IMG/VR virus record: IMGVR_UViG_2529293240_000020
Coordinates: 1 to 25,044 of that record
Strand: one strand, 5' to 3'
Origin: a virus
Lineage: Duplodnaviria > Heunggongvirae > Uroviricota > Caudoviricetes
DNA length: 25,044 nucleotides
Position 1 is the first letter of the stretch. Each line of letters begins with the position of its first letter. Position numbers and translations under genes: made by a program. Positions 4,441 to 25,005 of this stretch are shown here, piece after piece. The notes under the pieces were generated by a model. The model was not told the origin of the DNA. It did not search any database and saw only the letters and a list, made by a program, of their open reading frames with translations.

Positions 4441-4441
4441 G

Positions 4442-4798: not shown

Positions 4799-4807
4799 GT
4801 GGCCCCC

Positions 4808-6468: not shown

Positions 6469-7060
6469 CGTCACCCCGTACATGGATCACGTCGTTAATT
6501 TCAGTGTGTTCGCCGCTGCGCAGTGTCGCCCCGAGGCGCAGGAAATCCGGGAGCGCGGCGAGATCAATCTCTTCATCCAGCCGGAATTCCTGCTCCCACG
6601 TCACCGCCCACATGGTGACACCCAGCCCGTCGAGGCTGACGGAGTAAATGTTGTCTGCCCGCACATCAGCAGCCATGCGTTCAGCCCCCATGCCCGCTGT
6701 GGCATCCGACGACAGCAGGCGTTTGATCACCTTTCCGGCCAGCACTTCACAGCGCACGTCGCGGGAATACCCCCACGAATCCGTCGCCATGATGTAAGCC
6801 ACCCAGGTGACCAGACCGGACAGCCCGCCGCGCGGGTTGATATCCCGGACACGCAGGGCCGCGACACGGATACAGCCGGTGCGACCGGACAGATAGCGTT
6901 TCACTTCATCCGGGCTGTTGAACTGGCCGATGTGACGCTCCACCACGTCAGCCCGGTCAGGGGTGTCCCCCTGAAGGGCCGTCTGCAGCCAGGCCACAAT
7001 GTGCTCTGCGGCCGCAACGGTGCTCCCCGGTGTGCGCAGTTCAGGGCGTTGTTCTGTCAT
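6449..7060 (-). CDS. Mu-like phage protein (gp37/gp38-like; putative neck or tail-completion component), 203 aa
   Basis: Position between the virion morphogenesis gene and the sheath; start overlaps the upstream stop. Confidence 0.45.
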   Translation of the reverse strand: MTEQRPELRTPGSTVAAAEHIVAWLQTALQGDTPDRADVVERHIGQFNSPDEVKRYLSGRTGCIRVAALRVRDINPRGGLSGLVTWVAYIMATDSWGYSRDVRCEVLAGKVIKRLLSSDATAGMGAERMAADVRADNIYSVSLDGLGVTMWAVTWEQEFRLDEEIDLAALPDFLRLGATLRSGEHTEINDVIHVRGDDGTETD

Positions 7061-7602
7061 GGCAGAACCTCCTTCCAGAAATGACTGATAACCTGTTGCA
7101 GCTCCTGCTGGCTGGCAGAAGACAGCCCCAGAAATTCACGTTGCGGAATGTTCATCATGCGGTGATGTGCGCCGACGGTCTGCCAGACCGGATATTTCAG
7201 CGCCCGCCCGAAACACTGCGAGATAAGCCGTTTGTGGGCGCTGACCGGCACGCTGCCGGAAAAGCCGTCATTCATGATGCGGGCATAATCCAGCGGTGAA
7301 CCGATACGCACCACGCGGTTTTCCACGATGTACTGGATACTCTCCAGCAGATGGCCTTCACCGCGCAGCAGACTCTGGTTGCCGTGGCGGGTCTTTTTGT
7401 ACCCGTCAGACCAGTCCGGCCAGCGTTCGCCACCCGGACTGGTTTTCTCATCGATGATGCGGCGGCGGGTCTGTGATTCCACCACCGCACCGATGCTTTC
7501 CAGCAGCTCTGACTGCAATGAACCCTCTGCCAGCTTTTCAACGGCGCGGCGGATATCCTCCAGACGCTGGTCACCGCTGACCTGTACAGAAATCCCCATC
7601 AC
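7057..7602 (-). CDS. Phage virion morphogenesis (tail completion) protein, Mu G-like family, 181 aa
   Basis: Sequence character and position; ATGA-type overlap with the upstream gene. Confidence 0.5.
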   Translation of the reverse strand: MMGISVQVSGDQRLEDIRRAVEKLAEGSLQSELLESIGAVVESQTRRRIIDEKTSPGGERWPDWSDGYKKTRHGNQSLLRGEGHLLESIQYIVENRVVRIGSPLDYARIMNDGFSGSVPVSAHKRLISQCFGRALKYPVWQTVGAHHRMMNIPQREFLGLSSASQQELQQVISHFWKEVLP

Positions 7603-8036
7603 AGCACCCCTTTCAGGTTGTTACGGGTGAACAGCCGGGCATTGGCACCCACCACAATAATTTTCCCGTTGTCGGTTTCTGCCGGGGTGGCATACGTCGG
7701 CAGGCCCAGGTCACGGGTGCCGTTCGCCATTTCACGCAGGGTTTTAATGGCGTCGTCGTAGCGTTTCTGGATCAGCTCCGTGATTTGATTGTCACGCTCT
7801 GATAACCAGTAAAACGCCAGCGATACCGCCACGCGTTGCAGCGGGCGCGGGATTTCCGTCACCCCCAGCGGCAGCTGGTAGCGGCGGGACAGAAACGAAT
7901 CAATTTCCGCTTCCGCATCACTGATGGCCTGACGGATTTTGTCTTCATCCAGCCCGTTGGTTTCCCGGTTAATCGCCATGTTCCAGACAAGATTGCCGTC
8001 CGCGCGTAACAGATCTTCCTGCGTGATGTATCCCAT
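7599..8036 (-). CDS. Mu gp36-like head-tail connector protein, 145 aa
   Basis: Position downstream of the major head gene in a Mu-type order; overlapping start/stop. Confidence 0.5.
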   Translation of the reverse strand: MGYITQEDLLRADGNLVWNMAINRETNGLDEDKIRQAISDAEAEIDSFLSRRYQLPLGVTEIPRPLQRVAVSLAFYWLSERDNQITELIQKRYDDAIKTLREMANGTRDLGLPTYATPAETDNGKIIVVGANARLFTRNNLKGVL

Positions 8037-8347
8037 CAGCCTTTCTCCGCTTCCCGGACAATCAGATTCGGCTCTGCCATCAGGCGGGTGGCAACCGCAG
8101 CGCTCACCGCCACATCCTCACCGATATGTGACCAGAAACGGCCACAGCGCCAGAACCCGTTTTCAGACACGGCCCTGACGTTCAGCCGGACAGGGACGTC
8201 ACCCTGTACAGCAACCGGGTCTTCAGCCGGACGTGGTTCATTCGCCTGACCGTCAGCCACAATAACGTCTGCCAGCGGTGCCGGGTTTTCCTGTGCAGCG
8301 CTGTTCTTTGCGGCTTTCGCGCCTTTGGTTTCTGCTTTTTCACTCAT
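8036..8347 (-). CDS. Mu-like phage protein (FluMu N-terminal-domain-like), Ala/Pro-rich N-terminus, 103 aa
   Basis: Small ORF directly after the major head gene, typical of Mu-like head modules. Confidence 0.45.
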   Translation of the reverse strand: MSEKAETKGAKAAKNSAAQENPAPLADVIVADGQANEPRPAEDPVAVQGDVPVRLNVRAVSENGFWRCGRFWSHIGEDVAVSAAVATRLMAEPNLIVREAEKG

Positions 8348-8418
8348 GACTCTGCCTTTTAAAAGGCAGTTAAAAGGGCATTCACAGCACCTTTTAACTG
8401 CGGTTTACGGATGACGGG
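8348..8418 (-). promoter_or_regulatory. Structured intergenic region after the major head gene: perfect 18-bp palindrome CTGCCTTTTAAAAGGCAG (8351..8368) and a 9-bp-stem hairpin GTTAAAAGG-N12-CCTTTTAAC (8368..8397)
   Basis: Inverted repeats read directly from the sequence; an mRNA stem-loop after the capsid gene is a common phage arrangement. Confidence 0.35.
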
Positions 8419-9324
8419 TTATGCCGGGGGGGTGATGTACGGGCTGTCCACGATCTCCACATCCTTGTACCAGATGTTGGAATCGCCGCCGTTAACCAGC
8501 ATGGCGTCAATAATGAGCTTCGCGTCCGCACGGTTTTTCGGCCCCACCACAAGGGTGGTCGGGCGGATGCCCAGCGGCTCACCGTTGGTGCCCTTCATGC
8601 CCCGCAGCAACTCATTGGCTTTTTTGTAGTTCTCCACCGTCAGTGCTGCACGGGAACCGACGGCGGTCTGCCAGAAGCCGAAGCCCGCATTACAGCGACC
8701 GTCCACGCCGTACAGGAACTCGTGGTTCTTGAAGGTGTGCTCGCTGTTCAGATCGTCCAGGGCTTCAAACTTAAAGGCGCGTCGCGTCTGCCAGATGATG
8801 GGTTTCAGCACCTGCGACTCATCAATCAGGAACCACGGTTCGCCCTTGTCTGATGCCGGGGTGCCGACAACGTTGCTGTACGTACCGTCACCCAGCGGGT
8901 GGTCTTCATCAAAGAAGTTCTGGCCGTCAAAGCACAGGGTGTTAAAACCGGCACACAACAGGGCGTAACACAGCTTGTCCGGGAACACAGCAGTCATACG
9001 GCCATAGCGTTCGGCGGTAATGCTGTACTGACCAATCTGGTCATCTTCAATGTGTTCACGCTTAACGCGAATGGAACTTTCCCAGAGTTTGTTGGTGATG
9101 GTGTAACCATAACCGTCCAGCGTTGCCAGCTGACGCTCACCGACCCATTCTTTGATGTCCGGTAAATCTTTCATCCAGCCGTAAGTGTTGGAGGCGGACG
9201 AACTCGGCACCTCAGAAGCAATACGATTCCACTGCGGTTCGACACCACTCAGTCCACGGGTAAAGGCGGCGCTCAGGCAGGTGGTCAGTGCATGAAGGAT
9301 TTCAGAACTGATAGTCTGTGACAT
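8419..9324 (-). CDS. Major head (capsid) subunit, Mu gpT-like, 301 aa
   Basis: Length and sequence typical of Mu-like major head subunits; position after the protease/scaffold gene. Confidence 0.8.
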   Translation of the reverse strand: MSQTISSEILHALTTCLSAAFTRGLSGVEPQWNRIASEVPSSSASNTYGWMKDLPDIKEWVGERQLATLDGYGYTITNKLWESSIRVKREHIEDDQIGQYSITAERYGRMTAVFPDKLCYALLCAGFNTLCFDGQNFFDEDHPLGDGTYSNVVGTPASDKGEPWFLIDESQVLKPIIWQTRRAFKFEALDDLNSEHTFKNHEFLYGVDGRCNAGFGFWQTAVGSRAALTVENYKKANELLRGMKGTNGEPLGIRPTTLVVGPKNRADAKLIIDAMLVNGGDSNIWYKDVEIVDSPYITPPA

Positions 9325-9331
9325 GTGTTAC

Positions 9332-10288
9332 TTACTCCTGTTTCGGTTTAGCGGCGAGGAACTCTTCCCCGGTAATACCCATGCTGCGACACATCGCCAG
9401 TTCGGCATCGGTCAGTGTCTGCGCGGGTTTATCCTTGCCCTGGCTGGGCTTGTCGTTGTTAACCAGCGGCTGTGCACCTTTGGTGTACTCCGCAAACTGT
9501 TTGCGGCCTTCTTCCGTGCGGCAGGTGGCAAGGAACATGTCACGGTTTGCCGGGGCGACTTTTCCGGCCCCGATGGCCGCATCCACAAGCGCCTCGGCTT
9601 CCTTCTCTTCCAGTTGCTGAAGGCGTTTTTCTGCGGTTTCGGCACGGTTCAGTGCCAAATTGTGGGTTTCCACCGGCACAAACTTCGTCAGGTCAGGTGT
9701 CTGTGCGCGGTTCAGCGCCACCTGTTCGTTCTCCTGAAGTTGTTTAATGGCGGCCACGGTATCGTCCACCGTGGCGGATTCAGCCAGCCCAAGCAGGCCG
9801 GTGATTTGCACAGGTACTGTCATCGGGTTTTTCTCCGTATTCAGTGCAGGAAAATCCAGGTTAGGTTTGTTGGTCAGCCCGACGCTGGACAGGCGCGTCA
9901 CCGCACCGTCTGCGTCATGGAAAAACGCCGGGCTGTAATAGCGGTAGCGGCGCTCGCTCAGCATCCACCGGGCGGACTCACTCCAGACAACACGCCCTTC
10001 AATGGTGCCGCTGTCCGTCACCCGCAGTGCTTCCACCCAGCCATACGCCGGAGCCTCTTCACCCCGCGGGCCTTTAATTTCGGTGGCATGTTCAATGTCC
10101 ACCGGAATGTTGATGTCGGACGAACGGGCAACCACCTCATGTGGATTGCGGTTCATCCACGTCCGGCCATCGCGCCCGGTGAACTCACCCGCAGGAACGA
10201 GTTCAAGCCATTCCGGCAGTTGAGCGGGTGTCAGCTCAGGGATGGGTTCTGGCAGGGAAAAACACAGCGCCAGCAGTTCCGGTTGCAT
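9332..10288 (-). CDS. Head maturation protease / scaffold protein, Mu gpI-like, 318 aa
   Basis: Protease-like N-terminal half and coiled-coil, charged scaffold-like C-terminal half (EKRLQQLEEKEAEALV...); GGAG SD 9 nt upstream of ATG 10288. Confidence 0.7.
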   Translation of the reverse strand: MQPELLALCFSLPEPIPELTPAQLPEWLELVPAGEFTGRDGRTWMNRNPHEVVARSSDINIPVDIEHATEIKGPRGEEAPAYGWVEALRVTDSGTIEGRVVWSESARWMLSERRYRYYSPAFFHDADGAVTRLSSVGLTNKPNLDFPALNTEKNPMTVPVQITGLLGLAESATVDDTVAAIKQLQENEQVALNRAQTPDLTKFVPVETHNLALNRAETAEKRLQQLEEKEAEALVDAAIGAGKVAPANRDMFLATCRTEEGRKQFAEYTKGAQPLVNNDKPSQGKDKPAQTLTDAELAMCRSMGITGEEFLAAKPKQE

Positions 10289-10331
10289 GTCAGTCTCCGT
10301 CGTCTGGGGTTACCGACGGTCAGTATGCGGA

Positions 10332-10367
10332 AGGCAGAAAAAAAGCCGGATTTACCGGCTTCACTGA
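10332..10367 (-). promoter_or_regulatory. Copy B of a ~35-bp repeated dyad element (AAGCCGG-ATTTA-CCGGCTT hairpin plus T-run on the minus strand), 50 nt upstream of the protease gene start
   Basis: Near-identical to 17871..17906 (two substitutions and one A-run length difference); minus-strand RNA would fold as a 7-bp stem, 5-nt loop, followed by UUUUUU. Confidence 0.45.
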
Positions 10368-10502
10368 AAACGGGGAAATACCCCCTTCAAAACCCCTTCA
10401 AAAACGCCACGGACGCTTCAAAAAAGCCAGGGTGTACATTCATGCCATCAGAATAAAAAACGCGTTTCTGATGCGTTTCAGGGGCATTTACGGCGGGGAG
10501 GG

Positions 10503-11255
10503 TTATTCACTGTTAAAACGGGCCTGTCTGGCCGCCAGCTCCTGCTCACGGTTTATGCCGGGATTGTAGTTCCAGCCCGGATCAATCCCTTCCGGCACCT
10601 CTTCCTCTTCGCCCGTACGTTTGTTCACCCAGCGGACAGTTCTGATTTCCGGCGCTTCGGTGTGAATGGTGCCCTGTGCCGCCAGTTGCGCATACTCACC
10701 ACGGCTGACCTGACGGATGGTGCATTTGCAGCCCCAGCCGTTAGGGGCAAAATGCGTCTGCCAGAACGGATGCTCTACCGGCAGACACAGACGCGCCCAT
10801 TTCACATGCTCCACCCGGTGCTCACGGGATGGCCCCAGCTCGTACATCAGATACGGCATGGCCTGCTTTGTCCGCTGAATGCGTTCCCACTGGCCCGCCG
10901 CGCGGGCGGTGCGCATGTTGGTATCAAAAATCGTGCGGAGGCGGCGGTCGCTGCCCAGTTGCACGGTGCGGGTTTCACCCGTCAGCGGATCATCCATCTC
11001 CTGTACGCCCCACCATCCGCGTTTTATCAGCAACGGTTGCAGCATCTCCCGGAACTCGCTGAACGTCTGCCCGCTTTGCAGGGCGTCTTCCACAAGGGCT
11101 TTCACATCCGACAACAAATCCAGTTGCAGCATTCTGGCCACGGGGAAGCTGTACCGGTGCTCTTCCCGCCACACATCCCGGTAATCAAAACCGGGACGCA
11201 GCTTCTTCGCCTTCAGCCACGCCAGCGCCTCTTTCGGGATGAGGGTTTCACGCAT
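10503..11255 (-). CDS. Head morphogenesis protein, Mu gpF-like, ~250 aa from ATG at 11255
   Basis: Position after the portal gene; ATG at 11255 overlaps the portal stop by 8 nt (the track ORF extends to 11312). Confidence 0.65.
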   Translation of the reverse strand: MRETLIPKEALAWLKAKKLRPGFDYRDVWREEHRYSFPVARMLQLDLLSDVKALVEDALQSGQTFSEFREMLQPLLIKRGWWGVQEMDDPLTGETRTVQLGSDRRLRTIFDTNMRTARAAGQWERIQRTKQAMPYLMYELGPSREHRVEHVKWARLCLPVEHPFWQTHFAPNGWGCKCTIRQVSRGEYAQLAAQGTIHTEAPEIRTVRWVNKRTGEEEEVPEGIDPGWNYNPGINREQELAARQARFNSE

Positions 11256-12819
11256 GAGCAGTGTCTCCCAGCGCACGCGCCTTAAAGCACACCTCCGCCA
11301 GTTGCAGGGCAAAGTCGTCCGCGTTCAGCGTTTCCTGAAGCTCAGGCAGGCGTTTCAGAAAGTCATCAAAACTGTCGCACTCCTGCGCCAGTGTCAGCAC
11401 CGGGTTCGTGAACGCCTCGCCGGTTTTCTGCCAGTCACGCAGGGCATCATCCACCATCTGTGCCAGTTCGTCGGGGTGTTCCCTGTTCAGGGCGACGCGC
11501 TCGCGGTTCATCGCCATATCACCCGGCATCCCGGCAGACACCGGATGCAGAACATCAGCCCCTTCGTCTGGCTCAGCCAGGCCGAACCGGTCCCGCAGCG
11601 CCGACTCCTGAACCCGCATCCCCCGGTCAATCAGCGCCACCAGAGCATCTGTCAGCGCCTTCAGATCTTCGGCTTCACTGATACGCAGAACAACACGGGG
11701 GTAGTGCGCCTGTGGCCCGTAGTTGGCCTCGATGTAGGGCCGCACCAGATATTCATTCAGCGTGTTAGCCAGCTGCCGCGCGTCCCAGCGCACAATGTCC
11801 ATGCGCACCTGATTGTGCACGTCCGCCTGTGAACGCGAACTGCCGTTATCCGTGGTCATGGTCTGCCCCAGCACAGCCTTACTGATTTGCGCATCACACC
11901 ATTCCGCCATTTCACGGAACAGTGCGCCGCCGTTATTCCGGCTGGCGGTTTCCTGCATCTCCAGTTGCATGGACTGCGGAATGGCACACCCGGCATCCGA
12001 GGCAATGGAGGCAATCGCATCAATCAGTACGCGGATTTGCTCCTCCGTGGCGTTGGGACCGTATTTCCCCACCGTGACCGGAATGCCGAATTTTTCCGCG
12101 AATGCCCACCAGTCACGCACGGTAAAGGATTTCAGCATGTACATTACCGCCACCAGACGGGCCAGACCGTTACGCAGCGGCAGACCGGATTTCAGGCGCG
12201 GCTGGTGAACAATGAATTTTCCCGGTGTCAGTGGTACACCATCCACCGGTTCATCATCCGTCAGCAGGCGGAACTGGCGCAGTGTGGGCTTTTCGGCTTT
12301 CAGAAAACGGGGATCAACCCACTCATAATCACGGGGCACCCAGTGATTGTTACGGGTGTTCCACAGAATTTCACAGACCGCCACGCCTTTTCCCAGCCCG
12401 TCGAGCAGATCAAACATCAGCTCGGGGATTTGCGGGGCTTCCATCAGCGCACGGATGGCGTCCGCCAGCTGCACGTCAGCATCGTCATCACTGGCCGCCA
12501 CCACCACCGGTTCGATACCCGCCACCGTCAGCTTGCGGGTGCGCAGTACCGAGGCGTAATGCAAATCGCGTTCTTCCATCTCTTCAGCAAGGATAAAAAA
12601 ATCACGCGTGATACCGTCGGCGGCATTGCGCAGAATACCGGCCAGTCTGCCGGGATTCAGCCCGGAGGCGATGCTGATGCCCGGAGAGGCCGGACGCACA
12701 CCCGCCTGACGCGGACGGGCCTGTACTTCATCGAGCCTCTCTTTTTTCAGCGTGTCTTCCTCACCGGTTGCCGGGTTCAGCAGACGGCGAACGGCCCCGG
12801 CCAGTTGTTTCAGGTTCAC
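11248..12819 (-). CDS. Portal protein, Mu gp29-like, 523 aa
   Basis: Size and position immediately after the large terminase gene with ATGA-type overlap. Confidence 0.8.
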   Translation of the reverse strand: MNLKQLAGAVRRLLNPATGEEDTLKKERLDEVQARPRQAGVRPASPGISIASGLNPGRLAGILRNAADGITRDFFILAEEMEERDLHYASVLRTRKLTVAGIEPVVVAASDDDADVQLADAIRALMEAPQIPELMFDLLDGLGKGVAVCEILWNTRNNHWVPRDYEWVDPRFLKAEKPTLRQFRLLTDDEPVDGVPLTPGKFIVHQPRLKSGLPLRNGLARLVAVMYMLKSFTVRDWWAFAEKFGIPVTVGKYGPNATEEQIRVLIDAIASIASDAGCAIPQSMQLEMQETASRNNGGALFREMAEWCDAQISKAVLGQTMTTDNGSSRSQADVHNQVRMDIVRWDARQLANTLNEYLVRPYIEANYGPQAHYPRVVLRISEAEDLKALTDALVALIDRGMRVQESALRDRFGLAEPDEGADVLHPVSAGMPGDMAMNRERVALNREHPDELAQMVDDALRDWQKTGEAFTNPVLTLAQECDSFDDFLKRLPELQETLNADDFALQLAEVCFKARALGDTAHA

Positions 12820-14351
12820 AGTAAACCTCCCTCATTTTTCAGGCCACGCGTCAGCTTCATCTGGCGGCGTGCGTTGCGCTCTTCCGGTTTCGCCGGGCGG
12901 TTCAGGCGGTGCAGCTCGTAACGGTGGCAGTCATCTTTACTGGCAAGGAAGCCCAGGAAAATAGCCACAGCGGCGTCGCCGTGACGCTTGCGGCCATCGC
13001 TGCCTTTAGTACGGGCATCGTCAATACCGGGAACGCCACGCAGTAACTGAATGGCCCCGAGGTCATTGATCACGTCTTCATGCTTCGGAAGGATCAGCTC
13101 ATCATCTTCAAACGCCGCACGGAAACGGGGCATGTTTTCGCGGTAGAACGCCACGGACAGCATCACCTGTTCCACCTCGTCGCCGTATCGTTCTGCCGCC
13201 TGTTCTGCCAGATACTGACCATTACCCCGCGCATCCATTTTGATACCGTCACGACGGGGCAGACGATCGCAAAGCCAGAACAGCACCTGCTCCTGCTGTT
13301 TAAACGGCACATTGGCAAGCTCAACCAGAAACGGCACCTCGCGGGTGGTGTCGTCGTTCACCGTCACCGGGGCCAGCACGGTCAGGTCACCCGAACGCGC
13401 AAAGTCTTCCCCCAGACAGTGGCGCAGATTCTTCGGGAGTTTTTCCAGCTCGGGGCGCACCACCGTTTCCAGCCATTCCCGGATATCTGCCCGGCGCTGA
13501 CTTTCCGTCAGTGCGTTAAATTCCGGTGTGCCGGTAAAGCGCAAGACTTTCCCGGTGCCACGGGCCGCACGTTCACGCAGTGAGCGGGGGATATACGTGC
13601 CGCCGCCGTTTTTCGGGACGCAGTAATATTCCTCCAGCGCATCTTCGCGGGTGGCGGTATTTCGCAGCAGGCCTTCTTTCCATTCGGCCTCGGCTTCCGG
13701 TGACCACACCATGCCGCGCACCTGACAGATACGCCGGTACAGCCCGTCATTGCAGGCATCATCCAGCGTGATGGTGTGAATACGGTAATCTTTTTTGCCT
13801 GCGCGGCTTTCCTGAATCAGCTGGTTAAACGGGTTGTCCACGCCGTCATGGGTGGAGATAAGGCGAACCTTACCGCCCCACGTGGTCAGTGGTGTGACCG
13901 CTTTGAGTACCTCATCCAGCTTTTCATGAAACGCCGCTTCGTCGATGGTGACATTCCCCTGCATCCCGCGAATGTTGCCCGGATTACTGGACAGCGCCTT
14001 GACCTTAAATCCGCTGGCGAAGTACACGACGAACGTCAGAATGTCCTTGTCTTCGTCGGTGATCACTTCCTCGCGGATTTCTTCCGCGGCTGCATTAAAC
14101 GCTTTTGCCCACATCGCCACGGCGTCGATAAATTCGCGGGCCATCTCCTTATTCGAACCGATGTAAAAGTGATCGCATCCGCCGTTTTCCTTCTTCAGTG
14201 ATGCGGTCAGTGCCGCATCTGCCGCTTCCGCCCAGGTTAAACCGGTACGGCGGGATTTTTCGGCGATTTTCAGTTTTGAATCATCCGCCACCCAGCGTTT
14301 CTGATACGGCAGCAGAACATCGGATTCACTGAATGCGTTCATCTGTGTCAT
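12816..14351 (-). CDS. Terminase large subunit, Mu gp28-like, 511 aa
   Basis: Size, ATPase-like N-terminal region and acidic nuclease-like C-terminal region, position upstream of the portal gene. Confidence 0.8.
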   Translation of the reverse strand: MTQMNAFSESDVLLPYQKRWVADDSKLKIAEKSRRTGLTWAEAADAALTASLKKENGGCDHFYIGSNKEMAREFIDAVAMWAKAFNAAAEEIREEVITDEDKDILTFVVYFASGFKVKALSSNPGNIRGMQGNVTIDEAAFHEKLDEVLKAVTPLTTWGGKVRLISTHDGVDNPFNQLIQESRAGKKDYRIHTITLDDACNDGLYRRICQVRGMVWSPEAEAEWKEGLLRNTATREDALEEYYCVPKNGGGTYIPRSLRERAARGTGKVLRFTGTPEFNALTESQRRADIREWLETVVRPELEKLPKNLRHCLGEDFARSGDLTVLAPVTVNDDTTREVPFLVELANVPFKQQEQVLFWLCDRLPRRDGIKMDARGNGQYLAEQAAERYGDEVEQVMLSVAFYRENMPRFRAAFEDDELILPKHEDVINDLGAIQLLRGVPGIDDARTKGSDGRKRHGDAAVAIFLGFLASKDDCHRYELHRLNRPAKPEERNARRQMKLTRGLKNEGGLL

Positions 14352-14929
14352 ACACTAATCCCCAGAATTTCACGTTTGATGGTGTCAGCCGCACCGCCTG
14401 ACAGACCGCCCGCTCTGACCAGCTCTTCGGTTTTCTCTGCCATTTCCTGCGCAAACGCATCGCGGATTGCTTTTTCGCGTTTATGGCTGGTCATGGCTGC
14501 CGCTTCCAGACGCTGGGCAACCAACGCCAGTTGCCCCAGCGCCTTCGGTGCAACAGGTTTGTCGTCTTCTGTCATCGACATGGACGTTTCAAAGGCCAGC
14601 GTTTTTACAAACTCCATCAGCAGCCTGCCGACATCTAACGTCGGCGCGGAACCCAGCTTTGCCGCCCAGACTTCGGCCATTTCGCGGGAGGCGCGGATTT
14701 TTGCCCCGACTTTTTCCATGCGGCTGGCATAGCGGTTTAAGCCCGTCCGGCTTAACTGCATCCCCCCCGGCAGGTTATGTTCGTCAATCAGGGCATTGAT
14801 GGCTTCGCGGATTTCTTCCTGCGTGTGCCGCTTTTCCCGCAGCATCTGGTGTAACTGCTCACGGATGCTGTCCGGGAGTAAATCCACTTTGGAAAGACGG
14901 CCACGGGTGGGGCGTTGTTCATTTTCCAT
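14348..14929 (-). CDS. Putative small terminase / DNA-binding protein, Mu gp27-like, 193 aa
   Basis: Immediately upstream of and overlapping the large terminase gene; charged helical protein. Confidence 0.5.
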   Translation of the reverse strand: MENEQRPTRGRLSKVDLLPDSIREQLHQMLREKRHTQEEIREAINALIDEHNLPGGMQLSRTGLNRYASRMEKVGAKIRASREMAEVWAAKLGSAPTLDVGRLLMEFVKTLAFETSMSMTEDDKPVAPKALGQLALVAQRLEAAAMTSHKREKAIRDAFAQEMAEKTEELVRAGGLSGGAADTIKREILGISV

Positions 14930-15206
14930 CTTCTGTCCTCTGTGTTTTCAGACCGGCGTATATTTCTTCACGAACGGACTGAATATCCTTACCCAGCAGC
15001 TTCCACAGCCGCGCATATGCCGGTGATGAACGCAGGGCACGTTTCACGGGGGTATCCGGTGCATCCGGGTTCCAGGGCTTTCCGGTCTGTTGTTCGTATG
15101 TACGGACAATGGCGTTTTGCTCGATATCTGCCAGCACAAGGCAGTACGCCAGCTGCCGCACGACGGCCCGTTCTCCACGACTTAACGGCTTCAGTTTTCG
15201 GGCCAT
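14919..15206 (-). CDS. Hypothetical phage protein, 95 aa, basic
   Basis: ORF with ATG start, overlaps the downstream gene start by 11 nt, same-strand operon context. Confidence 0.4.
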   Translation of the reverse strand: MARKLKPLSRGERAVVRQLAYCLVLADIEQNAIVRTYEQQTGKPWNPDAPDTPVKRALRSSPAYARLWKLLGKDIQSVREEIYAGLKTQRTEDGK

Positions 15207-15208
15207 GT

Positions 15209-15502
15209 TCAGTCCCTCGCACGGGGTTTTTTAACGCCCGGCACACCGGACAGGCCGTTTGCCACATCCTCGCCGCTGCCGGTGATTTCAGCCACGTAAC
15301 AGCCGCCCACATCAGACAGACGAACCAGCCCCTGCTCGCGCAGCCATGCAAGCTGGGTGCGCACCACATCACGGGATACCTTATGACCGTAGGCCTGAAG
15401 GCAGGTCTGCAACACGGATTCATTCGCGCTGTCGCCACAGTCCAGCAGGGAACGCAGCAACACCAGACGACGGTCTTCAGTGAGGATCTCTTTCATCGCC
15501 AT
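15209..15502 (-). CDS. Hypothetical phage protein, 97 aa, possible winged-helix DNA-binding fold
   Basis: ORF in operon context; ATG at 15502 or 15496. Confidence 0.4.
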   Translation of the reverse strand: MAMKEILTEDRRLVLLRSLLDCGDSANESVLQTCLQAYGHKVSRDVVRTQLAWLREQGLVRLSDVGGCYVAEITGSGEDVANGLSGVPGVKKPRARD

Positions 15503-15806
15503 TAATTTTTTCCTTTAATTCGTTCTCTAATAACAAATCGCTGATGCGGGATACCTGGCGGATGGATGGCCCCAGCTCTTTGATTTCACCCCGCAGGTTG
15601 CTGATATCCAGTTGCAGGCGGTGAAATTCATTGCGGTCGGGTAGCTGATTCACCAGGCCTTCCATCACCGACACGCGGGAACGCAGCGAATCAAACTCTT
15701 CGCGTTTGACGTAAGTCTTCGCCAGAATCAACTGGAGAAAGTTAATCCCCGTCATCAGCAATGCCCACAGAATGGGCCAGTTGGCTCTGATCACTTCCCA
15801 GGACAC
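15477..15806 (-). CDS. Membrane protein with N-terminal transmembrane helix (WPILWALLMTGINFLQLIL) and coiled coil; possible lysis accessory protein (Mu gp25/releasin-like or i-spanin-like). Start ambiguous: GTG 15806 or GTG 15794, the latter forming a GTGA overlap with the traR-like stop
   Basis: Hydrophobic N-terminus followed by a heptad-like charged region; position in the lysis cassette. Confidence 0.4.
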   Translation of the reverse strand: MSWEVIRANWPILWALLMTGINFLQLILAKTYVKREEFDSLRSRVSVMEGLVNQLPDRNEFHRLQLDISNLRGEIKELGPSIRQVSRISDLLLENELKEKINGDERDPH

Positions 15807-16018
15807 GTTTTCCTCCTGCGCTCCCGCGCCTGCTGACAGTCAATACAGGTCACCACATCAGGCAGTGCCGCAAGGCGCTGTGCCGGAATAACGTTCCCGC
15901 AGTCATTGCAGAAGCCCCGACTGTGGGGTGCTTCTTTTATCCGCATCAGCCAGGCGTTAACGACGTCCTGACGTTCGTTTAAAACCACTTCACTGATGCG
16001 GTCGGTTTCATCGGTCAT
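15791..16018 (-). CDS. TraR/DksA-family C4 zinc-finger protein, 75 aa
   Basis: CNDCGNVIP...(17 aa)...CIDCQ four-cysteine motif and size typical of phage TraR-like proteins; ATGA overlap with the upstream gene. Confidence 0.7.
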   Translation of the reverse strand: MTDETDRISEVVLNERQDVVNAWLMRIKEAPHSRGFCNDCGNVIPAQRLAALPDVVTCIDCQQARERRRKTCPGK

Positions 16019-16623
16019 TTCGGCCCCGCTGATATTTTGTGACAGCTCGATTTGCTGTAACGGGCAAAGCCGTCAAGGGTTCTTACCCCGAGATAGCCCA
16101 GCGCCGGGGTAAACAACATCAGCGTGATATCCCAGTCCGGTGACGGCATATGCAGCGTGATACCGTTCGCACCGGCAACCGCACCGGCAATCTGGCCACA
16201 GGAGAGCAACAGCACATAGGCCAGACTGCTGTAACAGGACAGACGGGCCAGCAACGGGCGCGTCTGGCGCACATAGCTGTCCGTGGCGTTGTCACCGTTG
16301 CGGATGGTTTCCTGTTGTTCGTGGTGAGCGGCCTGCTGGTCAGCCAGCACCAGCTTCTGCCGCTCCACCTCCAGCTGTTGCAGCTGGACTTTCAGGGTTT
16401 CCAGCTGCACCAGTTGCTCCGGTGACAGCATCACCAGTTTTTGTTCCAGAATGCGTTGCTGTTCAGCCACCGGCAGGCTTTCCCGGACGCTTTCCACCAT
16501 ACCGGCCACCGAGTCAGCGGCGGCAGATGTGCTGCCACCAAACCAGCGCCCGACGGAACGAATCAGCCCCGGCCCGGCTTTCAGCAGAACGGAGGCGATG
16601 CCTGAAAGGGTTAACGGGTCCAT
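16015..16623 (-). CDS. Phage membrane protein, 202 aa: soluble coiled-coil N-terminal region and hydrophobic C-terminal segments; possible holin-like or lysis-associated protein
   Basis: Hydrophobic stretches LSCYSSLAYVLLLSCGQIAGAVAGA and ITLMLFTPALGYLGV; position downstream of the endolysin gene. Confidence 0.45.
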   Translation of the reverse strand: MDPLTLSGIASVLLKAGPGLIRSVGRWFGGSTSAAADSVAGMVESVRESLPVAEQQRILEQKLVMLSPEQLVQLETLKVQLQQLEVERQKLVLADQQAAHHEQQETIRNGDNATDSYVRQTRPLLARLSCYSSLAYVLLLSCGQIAGAVAGANGITLHMPSPDWDITLMLFTPALGYLGVRTLDGFARYSKSSCHKISAGPK

Positions 16624-17021
16624 GAATCCCCCTTATGAAAACGGCGCTGATGTTTATAAAGTGCCGCACAAAAGATACCGCCCAGCCAGAACGCCAGCTG
16701 ATAAGGCTCCTTCAGATAAAGAAGGCCGAATGTCAGCATGAAAAAACCAACGGCCCAGACCACCCATGACCACACGACAATTCGAAGGGAGGCGGCCCGG
16801 AAACGCCTTTTGGGTTGCAGGCGATAAGGTACGTTGCCCAGCTGGAAACTGTGAATCAGGCAGAGTGTCGCGCCGTATGCCAGCACCATGACCGCAAACG
16901 CCCGCCATCCGGCAAAACAGCTCGCCAGAAAAAGTACTGCCGACAGCCCCAGAAACGACCACTGGCACAACATAAAGCGGGAGTAAATAACGCGAACAAA
17001 AAGACTATTCATTCTGTGCAT
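16611..17021 (-). CDS. Integral membrane protein with four predicted transmembrane segments, ~136 aa from ATG 17021; holin candidate
   Basis: Four hydrophobic helices; the likely start overlaps the stop of the upstream small ORF. Confidence 0.45.
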   Translation of the reverse strand: MHRMNSLFVRVIYSRFMLCQWSFLGLSAVLFLASCFAGWRAFAVMVLAYGATLCLIHSFQLGNVPYRLQPKRRFRAASLRIVVWSWVVWAVGFFMLTFGLLYLKEPYQLAFWLGGIFCAALYKHQRRFHKGDSWTR

Positions 17022-17232
17022 TGAGTTTTTCCTTGTACTTCTGGCACTGCCAGAAAATGTCCCGTGTATCCACGGTGTTCCAGCCACGCATGTAGTAGCT
17101 GGCGTGTGTGCCGTCATGGCCGGTATAGTCCAGCGGTTTCGGAGGCGGACCTCCGGCCATACGGTGCAGAACCTCCTGACGCAGGCGGTCGCGTCGCCCG
17201 GCTTTCAGTGAGGCATCCCAGCCTTTGCCCAT
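17005..17232 (-). CDS. Hypothetical small phage protein, 75 aa, no transmembrane segment
   Basis: ATG one nucleotide after the endolysin stop (TGA-T-ATG); operon context. Confidence 0.4.
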   Translation of the reverse strand: MGKGWDASLKAGRRDRLRQEVLHRMAGGPPPKPLDYTGHDGTHASYYMRGWNTVDTRDIFWQCQKYKEKLNAQNE

Positions 17233-17233
17233 A

Positions 17234-17821
17234 TCACCCCCGCGTGGCGGACGGCGCGTTGTCGATGATTTCCAGACAGGCGTCGGTCAGTTCTTCCATG
17301 CGGTTAAACCATCCGTTCAGGTATTTGCCCTGGGCGGGTTTTGATTTGATGATGTCGGCATAAAAGCGGGAACGACGGACAATACAGCGGGTCAGCAACC
17401 AGTCCGGGTTAGACAGGTTCACGGCCCTGCGGGTACGCGGGCCGATGATGCCGTCAGCATCCACATCAGCGGCTTCCTGCAAAATTCTGATGGCTTTTTT
17501 AACGCCATGCTGAACCGCCGCATCGAACACAAACAGCGCTACACCATCAGGCCACTGCTCACACCCGGCTGGCAGCCAGTAATCGCGCCAGTAAATCTGC
17601 GCAGCCTGTTCGCGGGTCAAATCTTTGATGCGGGTATCCGGTTTGCCGTCTCCGTTGACGTCGGTTTTGCCGTCAATCACACCGTCGCGGCGGTCAGAAA
17701 TGCCGTATCTGGTTTCGCCGCCACGGTCAGTGGGGTCATTGACATAGACGCCTTCGATATCGGGACGCAGAATAAAATTCAGCGCATACTCAAAGGCCGG
17801 GGAGAATTTTTGATTTTCCAT
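17234..17821 (-). CDS. Endolysin: glycoside hydrolase family 108-type lysozyme domain with C-terminal peptidoglycan-binding domain, 195 aa; no N-terminal signal-anchor
   Basis: Motifs EGVYVNDPTDRGGETRYGI, REQAAQIYWRDYW and DGIIGPRTRRAV are characteristic of GH108 plus PG-binding endolysins. Confidence 0.75.
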   Translation of the reverse strand: MENQKFSPAFEYALNFILRPDIEGVYVNDPTDRGGETRYGISDRRDGVIDGKTDVNGDGKPDTRIKDLTREQAAQIYWRDYWLPAGCEQWPDGVALFVFDAAVQHGVKKAIRILQEAADVDADGIIGPRTRRAVNLSNPDWLLTRCIVRRSRFYADIIKSKPAQGKYLNGWFNRMEELTDACLEIIDNAPSATRG

Positions 17822-17833
17822 AAAAGCACCTGT

Positions 17834-17860
17834 GAAGCAGATTTAAACGTGGTCTGCTTC
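17834..17860 (-). promoter_or_regulatory. Perfect 8-bp inverted repeat GAAGCAGA-N11-TCTGCTTC, 13 to 39 nt upstream of the endolysin start codon
   Basis: Read directly from the sequence; lies in the presumed 5-prime UTR or operator region of the lys operon. Confidence 0.3.
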
Positions 17861-17870
17861 ATGGTGCCGG

Positions 17871-17906
17871 AGGCATAAAAAAAGCCGGATTTACCGGCTT
17901 CATTGA
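17871..17906 (-). promoter_or_regulatory. Copy A of the ~35-bp repeated dyad element (hairpin AAGCCGG-N5-CCGGCTT plus T-run on the minus strand), beginning 6 nt after the Mor/C-like stop codon
   Basis: Near-identical to 10332..10367; has the structure of a Rho-independent terminator for the minus strand and sits at the distance from the lys start expected for an activator site. Confidence 0.5.
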
Positions 17907-18356
17907 TTAAGGACGTCGTGGCGGACGACGAACGGGGTGAGGCAGGTTCGGGGAGTGGTAAAACAAATCCGGCTGGTATTTATTACACTCCAGACGCCGC
18001 ATCCGCTTGATGGCCTTGTAGACGGTTTTATACGTCACCCCGTAACGCTGAACCAGTTCAGGAATATTATGGCCGTTAAAATCACGCCAGATACGCATAT
18101 CCCGGACAAGATTCTCCAGAATATTCCCCCTCGGAACATAAACCTGCATCCCGCCGATATAGCGACAAATCGCCACAACCAGCTCAAGGGAATGGGCAGG
18201 GTCTGCGCCAATCCTGGCCAGCTCTTTACGCAGCAGTGCGTTCAGTTCAGAAAGTAACGCCGGATAAGCCGTGTTTTCCTGGTAATCGTTAAGGTATTCC
18301 AGAACGCTGTCGTCCCGGAAGTCTTCGAATAAATCCTGCTCTTTCATCTGTTTCAT
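17907..18356 (-). CDS. Mor/C-family transcriptional activator (Mu middle/late gene activator family), 149 aa
   Basis: C-terminal HTH-like region (IPELVQRYGVTYKTVYKAIKR) and size typical of Mu Mor/C proteins; position between the gemA-like gene and the late genes. Confidence 0.7.
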   Translation of the reverse strand: MKQMKEQDLFEDFRDDSVLEYLNDYQENTAYPALLSELNALLRKELARIGADPAHSLELVVAICRYIGGMQVYVPRGNILENLVRDMRIWRDFNGHNIPELVQRYGVTYKTVYKAIKRMRRLECNKYQPDLFYHSPNLPHPVRRPPRRP

Positions 18357-18904
18357 ACAGCAATTCTCCCGCTGTTTCGTGCGCGGGCATACGCACTGGT
18401 CAGTGCATCATAGCCGCGCAGCTCCTGCCCGGTTTCGCTCACAGGTAAAGGCACACCATGTCGGGCAAAGGCTTCACGGATGCAGCGCATATGCCACTGT
18501 TTGAGCGTTTCGAGCACAACCTGCAACGATTCCCCGTGACACCAGGCCAGCGTGGAAACACCCTGACCGCCATTACGTCTGGCTGTCAGGCGTTCAACGT
18601 ATTTGTCCAGCGCAGCGTCGCTGATATCGGAGACGAAACCATCAAGGAACATCTGCTGCCAGATTTTATAAATCTTCTCGCGCGGTGTGACATGCCCCTT
18701 AAAGCGACGGCGGGGATGTTTTTTCTGCTTCTTAAAACCGCGCTCTTTCATGGCATCGAGCACACGTTCCAGTTGTGCAACGGAAAGCTCGCGGCAACTG
18801 GTTTTGCCCGTGCACTGCACCAGAAAGGTGCGGTAAGTGTCATCGTCGAGTTGCAGGTCACGACGGGCAACATGAATTAATTTAATCAGGGATGTGCAGC
18901 TCAT
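18353..18904 (-). CDS. Mu gp16/GemA-like regulatory protein, 183 aa
   Basis: Sequence character (LIKLIHVARRDLQLDDDTYRTFL...GKTSCRELS) and position immediately upstream of the Mor-like gene with ATGA overlap, as in Mu. Confidence 0.55.
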   Translation of the reverse strand: MSCTSLIKLIHVARRDLQLDDDTYRTFLVQCTGKTSCRELSVAQLERVLDAMKERGFKKQKKHPRRRFKGHVTPREKIYKIWQQMFLDGFVSDISDAALDKYVERLTARRNGGQGVSTLAWCHGESLQVVLETLKQWHMRCIREAFARHGVPLPVSETGQELRGYDALTSAYARARNSGRIAV

Positions 18905-19217
18905 TATGTCCCCCCGGATTTAAAATTAATTCGGTGTTGAATAGCTCTTTACTCATTCGATGTAGCACATCGAGGGCGGCAACTGCCGCTACTTTATCCT
19001 GGCTGGCAATGATTTTTCGTAATTCCTCAATAATCCAGGCTGGACTTAATGATTCGGCAATCATCGTGCGTTTTTCTGAAATTAAATTTTCTCTGGCCTG
19101 CTCATAGCGTTGGTATACGACATTATCCAGAAAATCATTTACCTTTTGTTCTGACATGCCACTGGAAATTAAGGTTGCAGCCATTAAATCAGCATCAGTA
19201 ATCATCTGTATTTTCAT
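18882..19217 (-). CDS. Hypothetical early-region protein, 111 aa, AT-rich
   Basis: ATG at 19217; its first 23 nt overlap the reconstructed stop of the IS911-disrupted gene; its end overlaps the gemA-like start. Confidence 0.45.
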   Translation of the reverse strand: MKIQMITDADLMAATLISSGMSEQKVNDFLDNVVYQRYEQARENLISEKRTMIAESLSPAWIIEELRKIIASQDKVAAVAALDVLHRMSKELFNTELILNPGGHNELHIPD

Positions 19218-19301: not shown

Positions 19302-19373
19302 TGAAGTGGCACACTGAATTTGGCCACCTGAACAGAGGTGATATGCTCACCTCAGAACAACACAGGTGCTCCA

Positions 19374-20542
<1,169 letters not shown>

Positions 20543-22299: not shown

Positions 22300-22803
22300 T
22301 TACTGATAGTGTTTTATGTTCAGATAATGCCCGATGACCTTGTCATGCAGCTCCACCGATTTTGAGAACGACAGTGACTTCCGTCCCAGCCTTGCCAGAT
22401 GTTGCCTCAGATTCAGATTATGTCGCTCAATGCGCTGAGTGTAACGCTTGCTGATAACGTGCAGCTTTCCCTTCAGGCGTGATTCATACAGCGGCCAGCC
22501 ATCCGTCATCCATACCACGACCTCAAAGGCCGACAGCAGGCTCAGAAGACGCTCCAGTGTGGCCAGAGTGCGTTCACCGAAGACGTGCGCCACAACCGTC
22601 CTCCGTATCCTGTCATACGCGTAAAACAGCCAGCGCTGACGTGATTTAGCACCGACGTAGCCCCAATGTTCGTCCATTTCAGCGCAGACAATCACATCAC
22701 TGCCCGGTTGTATGCGCGAGGTTACCGACTGCGGCCTGAGTTTTTTAAGTGACGTAAAACCGTGTTGAGGCCAACGCCCATAATGCGTGCACTGGCGCGA
22801 CAT
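22300..22803 (-). CDS. insB: IS1 InsB (transposase catalytic part, made as an InsAB-prime fusion by frameshift)
   Basis: Sequence characteristic of IS1 InsB (...[28 protein letters not shown]...). Confidence 0.8.
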
Positions 22804-23196: not shown

Positions 23197-24438
23197 TCAC
23201 CCAACTAGCTTCATTCCTTTTATCCCACCTTCAATCATGCTTCCACGATCCGCTGCCATCACAAAATTTGCCCACCATTGCATCATCGGGCGACGCTGTT
23301 CCAGGTAATCGCTGCGGTTATAAGCACGACGAACCTCATTCTTATCCACATGGGCCAATGCTGCCTCAATGGCATCAGGCGGAAAGCCTTGTTCATTAAG
23401 AGCCGTACTGGCAATTGATCTCAGACCATGCGAAACAAGCACACCACCAAAACCTGCGCGTTTTAGTGAGGCGTTAACAGTCTGACTGTTCATAGGCTGG
23501 TTGGGCTTGATACGGCTAGGAAAGATAAATTCTCGGTTGCCGCTTAGCGGTTTCATCATCTCCAGCACAGCTATTGCTTCATCTGACAATGGAACAGTAT
23601 GGTCGCGGTTCATTTTCATGCGTGCTGCGGGAATCTTCCACTCTTGCGCTTCTATGTCTACTTCTTCCCAGCGAGCTTCAGCCGCTTCGGCAGGGCGGGT
23701 AATAGTAAGAAGTTGCCACATGAACAGGCAGCGTGTGGAAAGGCTAATGCTGGCTGTTCGCATTGTCTGCATCAGTTGAGATAGCTGATCCGGTCGAATG
23801 CTGGGCATGTTCTTTTTCTGAGGCTTTTCGAAGGCTTTACCGATATTAACGCTGGGAACAGCATCAATCAGCCCTGTGTTCTGGGCATAGATCATGACCT
23901 CATTAATACGTTGACACAGGCGACGAACCGTTTCCAGTGCTCCTCTGGCCTGAACCGGTTGTACGGCCTGAACCAGTGTATGAGCTTTAATATCTGTAAC
24001 GCTAACGTCGCCAATCGCAGGAAAGACATCTCTTTCAAGAGAGCGCCAGATATCTTCCGCATAGTCCTCTGTCACACTGGCTTTCTTCACATTCCACCAA
24101 CGTTCAGCTACGAGCTGGAAAGTATTGGTTTTGGCTTCCAGCGAACTACGCAATTGTTCTTGCTGATGTTCCTGCGGATCAATCTGTTTAGCTAGGAGTG
24201 AGCGGGACTCTGCACGGTAGTTTCTGGCATCGGCAAGGGTAACTGACGGGTAAGGGCCTATGCTTTTCTTTGCTCGTTTCTTGGTGACAGGGCGAATGTA
24301 GCGAAACTGCCAGATTTTACTCCCGCTGGATTTAATGAGTAGCTCAAGGCCATCGCCATCATAGAGAACGTAGTCCGCTTCCTTGGGTTTAGCAGATTCG
24401 ATTTCCTTAACGGATAGAGGTTTGGTTTGTCTTGCCAT
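23197..24438 (-). CDS. int: Tyrosine recombinase / integrase, P4-type (CP4-57 IntA-like), 413 aa, apparently intact
   Basis: Downstream of ssrA in the same orientation with a 204-bp gap; catalytic H-x-x-R (HGLRS) and Tyr (AYNRSDY) motifs; N-terminus MARQTKPLSVKEIESAKPKEADYVLYDGDGLELLIKSSGSK typical of P4-family integrases. Confidence 0.85.
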   Translation of the reverse strand: MARQTKPLSVKEIESAKPKEADYVLYDGDGLELLIKSSGSKIWQFRYIRPVTKKRAKKSIGPYPSVTLADARNYRAESRSLLAKQIDPQEHQQEQLRSSLEAKTNTFQLVAERWWNVKKASVTEDYAEDIWRSLERDVFPAIGDVSVTDIKAHTLVQAVQPVQARGALETVRRLCQRINEVMIYAQNTGLIDAVPSVNIGKAFEKPQKKNMPSIRPDQLSQLMQTMRTASISLSTRCLFMWQLLTITRPAEAAEARWEEVDIEAQEWKIPAARMKMNRDHTVPLSDEAIAVLEMMKPLSGNREFIFPSRIKPNQPMNSQTVNASLKRAGFGGVLVSHGLRSIASTALNEQGFPPDAIEAALAHVDKNEVRRAYNRSDYLEQRRPMMQWWANFVMAADRGSMIEGGIKGMKLVG

Positions 24439-24642: not shown

Positions 24643-25005
24643 TGGTGGAGCTGGCGGGAGTTGAACCCGCGTCCGAAATTCCTACATCCTCGGTACTACA
24701 TGCTTAGTCAGTCTTTACATTCGCTTGCCAGCTGCGGACGGACACGCCACTAACAAACTAGCCTGATTAAGTTTTAACGCTTCAACCCCAGGCAGGGCTT
24801 CCACGCGATCTCTTTTGGGTTTGACCTCTCTTGATCCCCGTCCTAAGAGCGGAGGCTAGGGAGAGAGGGCTCTAAGCAGGTTATTAAGCTGCTAAAGCGT
24901 AGTTTTCGTCGTTTGCGACTATTTTTTGCGGCTTTTTACGAGGCCAACCGCCCCTCGGCATGCACCTTGGGTTTCGCAAATCCCGTCGAATCCAGAATCA
25001 GCCCC
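24643..25005 (-). ncRNA. ssrA: tmRNA (SsrA, 10Sa RNA), 363 nt
   Basis: Reverse complement reads GGGGCTGATTCTGGATTCGACGGG ... GCAAACGACGAAAACTACGCTTTAGCAGCTTAATAA (tag-peptide ORF) ... GGACGCGGGTTCAACTCCCGCCAGCTCCACCA, matching enterobacterial ssrA as recalled. Confidence 0.9.

Follow-up and report, generated by a model that had tools for sequence, protein, structure and literature searches.

In bacteriophage Mu, the activator Mor recognizes a site at −51 to −36 (centre −43.5) in which a G/C-rich hexanucleotide separates two 5-bp inverted repeats (PMC4287176, PMC4390567), and Mor and C do not activate each other's promoters (PMC4287176). In bacteriophage T4, the early read-through RNA of gene e sequesters the ribosome-binding site (RBS) in a hairpin, and late transcripts start inside that hairpin; the RBSs of soc, 49 and I-TevI are likewise sequestered only in early read-through transcripts (PMC3014915). 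Here we analysed a 25,044-nucleotide (nt) stretch of a Caudoviricetes virus (IMG/VR record IMGVR_UViG_2529293240_000020, positions 1 to 25,044; hereafter the window), in which one short element occurs twice in a Mu-like prophage, between the Mor-family activator gene and the endolysin gene lys, and again in front of the protease gene I. We propose that this element probably unites a Pm-type Mor-dependent promoter and an intrinsic terminator in one fused module, used twice, where it would stop upstream transcription and restart it under Mor.

The two copies form a 42-nt direct repeat (10326-10367 and 17865-17906, 38/42 identical, 90%), and a repeat search of the window places both where the original prediction had seen a near-exact recurrence, at 17871..17906 and 10332..10367. 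The exact 26-nt core AAAAAAAGCCGGATTTACCGGCTTCA is present in the window in two copies only (10338-10363 and 17877-17902); no third copy appeared there with up to three mismatches tolerated, and none of 100 dinucleotide-shuffled sequences held a match at the same tolerance. Both copies read on the minus (gene) strand, AATGAAGCCGGTAAATCCGGCTTTTTTTATGCCTCCGGCACCAT before lys and AGTGAAGCCGGTAAATCCGGCTTTTTTTCTGCCTTCCGCATACT before I, with nearly all bases as in Mu Pm. The further similarity TGCCTYC-SGCA, which had been noticed next to the repeat, corresponds to a promoter spacer that reaches the −10-like hexamers CACCAT and CATACT. The parts of the module are as follows.

17877..17901, minus strand: intrinsic terminator A, stem GAAGCCGG/CCGGCTTT, loop TAAAT, U7 tract at 17877-17883 (terminator scan and fold)
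10338..10362, minus strand: intrinsic terminator B, same hairpin, U7 tract at 10338-10344 (terminator scan)
17889..17904, minus strand: Mor box A, AATGA-AGCCGG-TAAAT, predicted −51 to −36 of the lys promoter (homology to Mu Pm and position weight matrix)
10350..10365, minus strand: Mor box B, AGTGA-AGCCGG-TAAAT, predicted −51 to −36 of the protease I/head promoter (homology and position weight matrix)
17861..17866, minus strand: −10-like hexamer CACCAT of the lys promoter, 22 nt after the box, the spacing of TATCCT in Mu Pm
10322..10327, minus strand: −10-like hexamer CATACT of the I promoter, 22 nt after the box, aligned with CAAACT-GAC of Mu PI
17853, minus strand: predicted Mor-dependent start (A) for lys, with a 32-nt leader to the lys ATG (numbering transferred from Mu Pm)
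10314, minus strand: predicted start (G) for I, with a 26-nt leader (numbering transferred from Mu Pm)
17907..18356, minus strand: Mor-family activator gene, 149 aa (Pfam PF08765, Mor, E = 4e-30)

A terminator scan of the minus strand returned GAAGCCGG-TAAAT-CCGGCTTT with eight pairs and a U-run at 17901-17881 and at 10362-10342. The hairpin contains eight pairs (five G-C) and a 5-nt loop, is followed by U7, and folds in isolation with −12.6 kcal/mol (z = −3.9). Hence the sequence features of an intrinsic terminator are all present, a G+C-rich hairpin directly before a U-tract, 3′ of a stop codon and on the transcribed strand; its termination efficiency we infer from these features. The scan and the fold agree with the minus-strand terminator that had been suggested after the Mor/C-like gene; in our analysis the hairpin begins 5 nt past the mor stop codon.

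In the Mu record AF083977, Pm lies at 9163-9233 directly after mor and reads AGTAAAGCCGGTTAATCCGGCTTTTTTTACGTCCTCAATATCCT, with a TransTermHP terminator at 9179-9200 inside it. This terminator is presumably the early terminator of Mu, t9.2; the comparison is based on the terminator prediction of AF083977. The mutagenic primer JM1 (...CTTCT-N-TAAA-N-AGTA, with the two N at −57 and −52) anchors the Mu numbering, −57 being G and −52 being C, and therefore the Mu box is AGTAA-AGCCGG-TTAAT, the −10 is TATCCT (−13 to −8), and +1 is the A eight nt after the hexamer. Box A is identical to this mapped Mor site at 13 of 16 positions and box B at 14, and both fit the 16-bp Mor element, two 5-bp imperfect inverted repeats with a G/C-rich 6-nt spacer between them. 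The Mor/C-type site that the original prediction had centred near −43 is thus recovered as a Mu-homologous box with a predicted centre at about −43.5. The lys start codon follows its hairpin centre (17891) at a distance of 70 nt, and the protease start codon follows the other centre (10352) at 64 nt, both within the 60–70 nt given earlier for the dyads. Relative to the hairpin the box is displaced, with its centre 5.5 bp further upstream, and box and hairpin share the 5′ arm and loop only. A box coincident with the hairpin dyad (centre 17891) was also considered and was rejected, because the Mu primer coordinates shift the box 5.5 bp upstream. No −35 hexamer was found at either predicted promoter in a scan of the window.

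A position weight matrix (PWM) was built from the boxes of the relatives described below, with 40 shuffled windows as the null. Boxes A and B scored 27.8 and 28.2, the next best site in the window scored 10.8, and the shuffled maximum was 19.0. On the 36.7-kb Mu genome the only high score was that of Pm (26.4; next best 16.2), and no score at Mu Plys or PI reached 9. A scan of the window and of related prophages for the motif, which had been put forward as a check, gave two PWM sites in the window and a box at both sites in the relatives. Both halves of the earlier proposal of a terminator and/or an activator-dependent late promoter appear to hold, superimposed on the same DNA.

The activator is of the matching type. 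The protein encoded beside the lys-side element shows 61% identity with Mu Mor and 32% identity with Mu C, with a recognition helix nearly identical to that of Mor (TVYKAI.RMRRL) and a conserved helix-turn-helix and beta-strand region. Searches of the window by tblastn with Mu Mor and Mu C matched a single locus, 17907-18356. No second Mor/C gene was found in the window, nor in Klebsiella phage Kp4866-3 (complete genome), which alone represents the prophage's family among the sequenced phages of the collection searched; among complete genomes Kp4866-3 has one Mor/C locus and Mu, D108 and SfMu have two each. The annotation of a full Escherichia coli prophage likewise lists a single Mor-family protein. 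Hence, of the Mor/C activator originally proposed, the Mor/Pm-type protein and box stand, and the C or late type is not upheld by protein identity (61% versus 32%) or by PWM score (26.4 at Pm versus <9).

Relatives were drawn from three sources, complete E. coli genomes, one genome per species, and 78 viral contigs; the one-genome-per-species set yielded Klebsiella, Raoultella, Kluyvera, Pluralibacter, Brenneria and Trabulsiella, and box copies were located by an exhaustive Hamming scan. The box lay before lys, after the mor operon, in 93 of the 93 loci covering that position, and before protease I in all 80 covering loci, and these same two syntenic positions were occupied throughout seven enterobacterial genera. 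Outside the lys and I sites there were few weaker matches, with three to four mismatches. All 73 distinct lys-site sequences kept the box, seven stem pairs and a T7–T9 run. At the I site the box was present in 53 of 53 distinct sequences, where 22 had both hairpin and T-run, 13 the hairpin only, 1 the T-run only and 17 neither; the I site of E. coli ECONIH4, for instance, retains AGTGAAGCCGGTTAATCC and beyond it reads ACCTGCATCCCC, with no further resemblance. Because hairpin and T-run occur together in 73/73 sequences before lys yet in 22/53 before I, the box is more than part of a terminator, and because both are lost from 17/53 I sites, terminator B is dispensable for the box.

In the relatives the box was invariably followed, after 22–23 nt, by a hexamer whose second base is A and whose sixth is T. 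At the lys site of 55 distinct relatives it was CAnnAT or TAAATT (CACCAT, CACTAT, CATGAT, CAAAAT and TAAATT are examples), and at the I site of 45 distinct relatives it was [CG]A[CT]ACT, with CATGCT or CACTCT in three, again 22–23 nt after the box. The spacer of the I-site box drifts (AAGCGG, AACCGG, AGGCGG, AAACGG), and the half-sites and the subsequent CC are nearly constant. As judged from these sequences the two functions are separable, with a constant promoter (box and −10) and a terminator that would be obligatory only where the early operon must stop before the lysis genes.

A third Mor-box-like site, AGGGAA(A/G)NNGGT(A/T)AAT, was seen within the gene for baseplate assembly protein V in intact relatives: at 13065-13082 of locus L096 (about 345064-345081 of NZ_CP065615.1, minus strand), at 27153-27170 of Kp4866-3 (L097), and in loci L098-L140. 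It has a good −10 hexamer (TATTAT, CATTAT or ATAAAT) 23–24 nt downstream and a PWM score of up to 24.8 against the shuffled maximum of 19, and it is retained at the homologous position in proteins that are 57–99% identical; the region is absent from the window. This site is probably a promoter of the tail operon, an analogue of Mu PP, with coding constraint as the alternative cause of its conservation.

From these comparisons we propose the following course of events. RNA polymerase entering from upstream would transcribe the element, and the RNA would fold into GAAGCCGG-UAAAU-CCGGCUUU followed by U7 and terminate; the RNA stopped at the first site would be that of the early operon ending in mor, and at the second site that of the lys-packaging operon ending in F. 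Mor, an early product (17907-18356), would then accumulate and bind the box A(A/G)TGA-AGCCGG-TAAAT, centred at about −43.5, and would recruit sigma-70 RNA polymerase to a promoter with a weak −10 (CACCAT or CATACT) and no −35, and transcription would start near 17853 for the lys operon and near 10314 for the protease I/head operon. Because a C gene and a middle operon are lacking in the prophage's family, Mor would act directly on the late genes, in a two-tier cascade in place of the three tiers of Mu.

The element is in this respect of a kind already known from Mu Pm. It shares with Pm about 35 nt of near-identical sequence, with the 16-bp box, the AGCCGG spacer, the hairpin AAGCCGG-N5-CCGGCTT and the T7 run, as well as a −10-like hexamer 22 nt after the box, the lack of a −35, and a place immediately behind gemA-mor; in both, a further inverted repeat follows, with its 5′ arm just upstream of +1 (in the window, the predicted +1). 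What is new is the presence of several Mor boxes before late genes, with no C: Mu has one such site, which drives the middle operon (gp18-20 and C), whereas the window has two, with a probable third in intact relatives, which are proposed to drive lys and the head genes directly. With Mu Plys and PI the element shares the genomic positions (before lys, and between F/G and I), the (here predicted) dependence on an activator and the lack of a −35. Moreover, the core promoter on the I side is recognizably homologous to that of PI (Mu CCCGCAAACTGAC versus window TTCCGCATACTGAC), and in Mu too a terminator lies upstream of PI. Unlike Plys and PI, however, the box in the window is of the Mor type and not of the C type, and in Mu the hairpins that terminate transcription after C and before PI stand apart, upstream of the promoter, where they at most touch its edge and are not fused with the activator site.

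Between the element and lys lies a second inverted repeat, GAAGCAGA-N11-TCTGCTTC, which is exact at 17834-17841 and 17853-17860, just as it had been described (17834..17860). Folding places this repeat, and a counterpart before I, in hairpins over the RBS.

17825..17868, minus strand: predicted RBS-masking hairpin of lys, inner stem GAAGCAGA/UCUGCUUC (17853-17860 with 17834-17841; fold)
10297..10319, minus strand: leader hairpin of I, CCGUCG-N11-CGACGG, 5′ arm between the −10 and the predicted start, 3′ arm over the Shine-Dalgarno (SD) sequence GGAG

At lys an outer stem is added, in which GGCACC (17863-17868, overlapping the −10) pairs with GGUGCU (17825-17830), which holds most of the SD sequence AGGUG (17827-17831). 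The fold of 17822-17915 on the minus strand has −33.8 kcal/mol (z = −5.6), and given a start at 17853 the 5′ arm GAAGCAGA would occupy −7 to +1. Thus only read-through RNA would contain both arms and sequester the SD sequence, and RNA initiated under Mor, without the 5′ arm, would be translatable. We calculated how much free energy it costs to open the ribosome-binding region (−15 to +12). For lys this opening energy was 15.3 kcal/mol in the read-through RNA versus 5.8–5.9 kcal/mol in RNA from the predicted start, and for I it was 13.8 versus 4.4 kcal/mol; the read-through value was the higher one in 55 of 55 distinct lys-site sequences and in 45 of 45 at I, and in all of these the predicted structures and their geometry suit masking of the RBS in read-through RNA. 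When the 5′ segment was swapped for shuffled versions, the native segment was found to raise the opening energy far above the shuffled ones (median z 4.2 for lys and 3.0 for I). The lys sites of the relatives differ in sequence and keep the same design, an inner stem just past the −10 and an outer stem that joins the −10 or spacer with the SD sequence or the start codon.

The helix at I, which was specified by hand for the covariation test, was paired in 84.7% of cells over 21 distinct sequences versus at most 47% with the partners slid. Five pairs are changed on both sides (18 cells), G-U pairs are present, and the covariation score was reached by 0 of 500 shuffles. RNAalifold on MAFFT leader alignments was uninformative (four pairs at I and none at lys), because loop lengths differ and the stems are misaligned. 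Since covariation and G-U pairs are found in the relatives, the second inverted repeat behaves in our models as the core of a conserved RNA hairpin that masks the RBS and not as a further protein site. We somewhat favour the view that this masking serves as a second safeguard. As predicted, it would resemble T4 gene e in its SD-containing hairpin, a late promoter in or over the 5′ arm, a late RNA without that arm and a protected endolysin gene; it differs in that sigma-70 with Mor would take the place of gp55-dependent late promoters, the phages and sequences are unrelated, and the mechanism is here a prediction.

Two inverted repeats of Mu itself show a similar arrangement. At Pm the repeat TGATGA...TCATCA gave an opening energy of 17.1 versus 7.5 kcal/mol, and at PI the repeat CTGCTCA...TGAGCAG gave 15.6 versus 2.2 kcal/mol (1205-1260 and 10015-10065 of locus L006, which is AF083977); in both, the 5′ arm lies between the −10 and +1 and the 3′ arm over the start codon or SD sequence. 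A description of these repeats was not found in the literature examined. The start-codon hairpin in the Mu Plys leader had an opening energy indistinguishable from that of shuffled controls (45/100) and is not counted as support.

For the second inverted repeat a different reading must be weighed, in which the start lies further upstream and the hairpin belongs to the late mRNA leader, as a 5′ stabilizer or as the target of a translational activator, or in which the repeat is a DNA operator. The Mu translational activator Com opens a hairpin at mom, and a reading of this kind also draws on the fact that the start site is a prediction and that the hairpin is strongly conserved. We consider it unlikely, however, because in all relatives the conserved hexamer (A2, T6) lies directly 5′ of the 5′ arm, or overlaps it, at the spacing of Pm, and because the corresponding 5′ arm of Mu Pm (TGATGA) spans −6 to −1 relative to a start that has been mapped; against the operator in particular, G-U pairs and compensatory changes favour RNA.

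For the element as a whole, one alternative would be that both copies are intrinsic terminators only, alike by recent duplication or gene conversion, and that late transcription starts elsewhere or arises by read-through. The canonical hairpin with U7, the unusual similarity of the copies in the window's lineage (26 nt identical) and the lack of a sigma-70 promoter in a generic scan all agree with this. Yet the 17 of 53 I-site sequences that lack the 3′ arm and T-run keep 16–18 nt of box and the −10 at a fixed spacing, bases that a terminator does not need (A-R-T-G-A 5′ of the stem, and the loop sequence) are conserved, the box matches an experimentally mapped Mor site of Mu, and the 85-bp gap between mor and lys contains no other promoter candidate, so that this explanation is quite improbable. 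A late promoter of the C type, comparable to Mu Plys and PI and recognized by a C orthologue, has in its favour that the element precedes lys and I, which are C-dependent in Mu, and that the right half-site T(A/T)AATCC resembles ATAATCC of Plys; it is less probable still, given the closer identity of the activator to Mor (61%) than to C (32%), a box PWM that scores 26.4 at Mu Pm and <9 throughout Plys and PI, and the absence of cross-activation between Mor and C in Mu (PMC4287176). The element is also short, palindromic, intergenic and repeated, as a small dispersed palindromic repeat (of the repetitive extragenic palindrome or miniature inverted-repeat type) or a host-borne element in two intergenic gaps would be. 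It is, however, present in only 51 of 5426 complete E. coli genomes, at a median of two places per genome, and 50 E. coli genomes match the 1.2-kb lys-mor region. These counts are about equal; the element is prophage-specific, confined to the approximately 1% of E. coli genomes that carry the prophage, and is not a host-wide repeat. Among the loci inspected many scattered copies were not seen, and the same two syntenic positions were occupied in seven genera, which leaves a dispersed repeat hardly credible. No Rfam family matched the element, the sole Rfam match in the window being transfer-messenger RNA (tmRNA), and a megablast of the mor-lys region against 50,697 phage records gave no match; the sequenced relative Kp4866-3 surfaced by protein search only.

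Several points weigh against the Mor-dependent promoter–terminator and its translational safeguard as we propose them. The generic sigma-70 scan gave no match at the element, which is expected for an activator-dependent promoter and is not positive evidence for one; the −10 hexamers are weak, with three to four of six consensus matches; and the start sites were transferred from Mu by alignment, +1 being taken as the eighth nt after the hexamer. The stem at the lys site is invariant and carries no covariation information. In some I sites without a T-run (L007, L039, L014 and L086) a 7-bp hairpin is kept by compensatory changes (AAACCGG/CCGGTTT and AAGGCGG/CCGCCTT), which hints that the dyad may do more than terminate transcription and could, for instance, contribute to the geometry of Mor binding. 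A longer RNA is generally costlier to open, and this was addressed solely by the shuffle control and by covariation, with phylogenetically related sequences. Finally, the prophage in the window lacks the early region (repressor, ner, A, B and the early promoter) and the distal tail genes.

A wider picture combines these claims, and we give it an even chance of being right as a whole: an enterobacterial clade of Mu-like phages would run a two-tier cascade, in which one Mor serves the lysis, head and tail operons (the last through the box in the baseplate gene), the Mor site is deliberately fused to a terminator, each promoter is backed by a translation lock, and the same lock, apparently undescribed, is present at Mu Pm and PI. 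No description of regulation in this prophage family was found in the literature searched, and absence there is no proof. The analysis turns an anonymous repeat into a mapped module of box, terminator, −10, predicted start and leader hairpin, all of them landmarks for annotating a widespread family of Mu-like prophages found in E. coli/Shigella, Klebsiella, Raoultella, Kluyvera, Pluralibacter, Brenneria and Trabulsiella. The textbook three-tier cascade of Mu (early, Mor, C, late) would then not be universal, since relatives appear to skip C, and Mor-type promoters before late genes bear on the evolution of the Mor/C pair. Moreover, the approximately 120 distinct site variants are a natural mutational series for Mor specificity, in which the spacer tolerates AAGCGG, AACCGG and AGGCGG. 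If true, the translation lock on the endolysin gene would extend the principle of T4 gene e to temperate transposable phages.

The genes around the two copies of the element are the following.

18353-18904, minus strand: GemA
17234..17821, minus strand: GH108 endolysin (lys), first gene of the lysis/packaging operon (Pfam Glyco_hydro_108 and PG_binding_3)
10503-11312, minus strand: Mu F
9332..10288, minus strand: Mu-like protease/scaffold gene I (Pfam Mu-like_Pro, E = 6e-45)
8419-9324, minus strand: major head protein gpT

The Mor of the window (149 aa) has a 13-residue proline/arginine-rich C-terminal extension (17907-17960, compared with 9733-10230 of locus L002), and many relatives have a 136-aa Mor that is followed by an extra open reading frame (ORF) of 165 aa and then by the element. 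The conserved element starts at TCAATGA in both arrangements, and therefore its junction with the upstream gene would be a recombination or deletion boundary. Within the lysis/packaging operon downstream of lys, a 75-aa ORF of the TraR/DksA zinc-finger type (15791-16018, minus strand), recognized by synteny with annotated E. coli prophages, could act as an extra modulator of RNA polymerase in late development.

The Mu-like genes extend from about 4045 to 19217 and are flanked by insertion sequence (IS) copies of the IS3 family at 2726-3882 (minus strand) and 19338-20542 (plus strand). An IS66-family transposase gene lies at 758-2359 (plus strand) and a further transposase ORF (phrog_720) at 22300-22803 (minus strand). 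The prophage is thus a defective remnant cut by IS elements, and for this reason the module, although intact, may be out of use in the strain of the window. The tmRNA gene ssrA (24643-25005, minus strand; Rfam 295.8 bits) adjoins a tyrosine integrase gene (23197-24438, minus strand), as is usual where an island has integrated at ssrA; the Mu-like remnant is part of this island or its neighbour, and is not a free-standing transposed Mu.

Upstream of the I box, the segment 10368-10502 contains three direct repeats TTTT(T)GAAG on the minus strand (plus-strand cttcaaaa at 10385, 10396 and 10416), and at 10446-10478 alternative terminator-like hairpins, CAUCAGAA/UUCUGAUG and AAACGC/GCGUUU, the latter followed by U6. 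The homologous gap between G and I in Mu has similar phased T-tract repeats (TTTTTAAAAC and TTTTTAAACC) where the record marks a strong gyrase cut site. Because of this similarity to the repeats at the annotated gyrase site of Mu, 10368-10502 may hold a gyrase site, and it may also hold the true end of the lys transcript.

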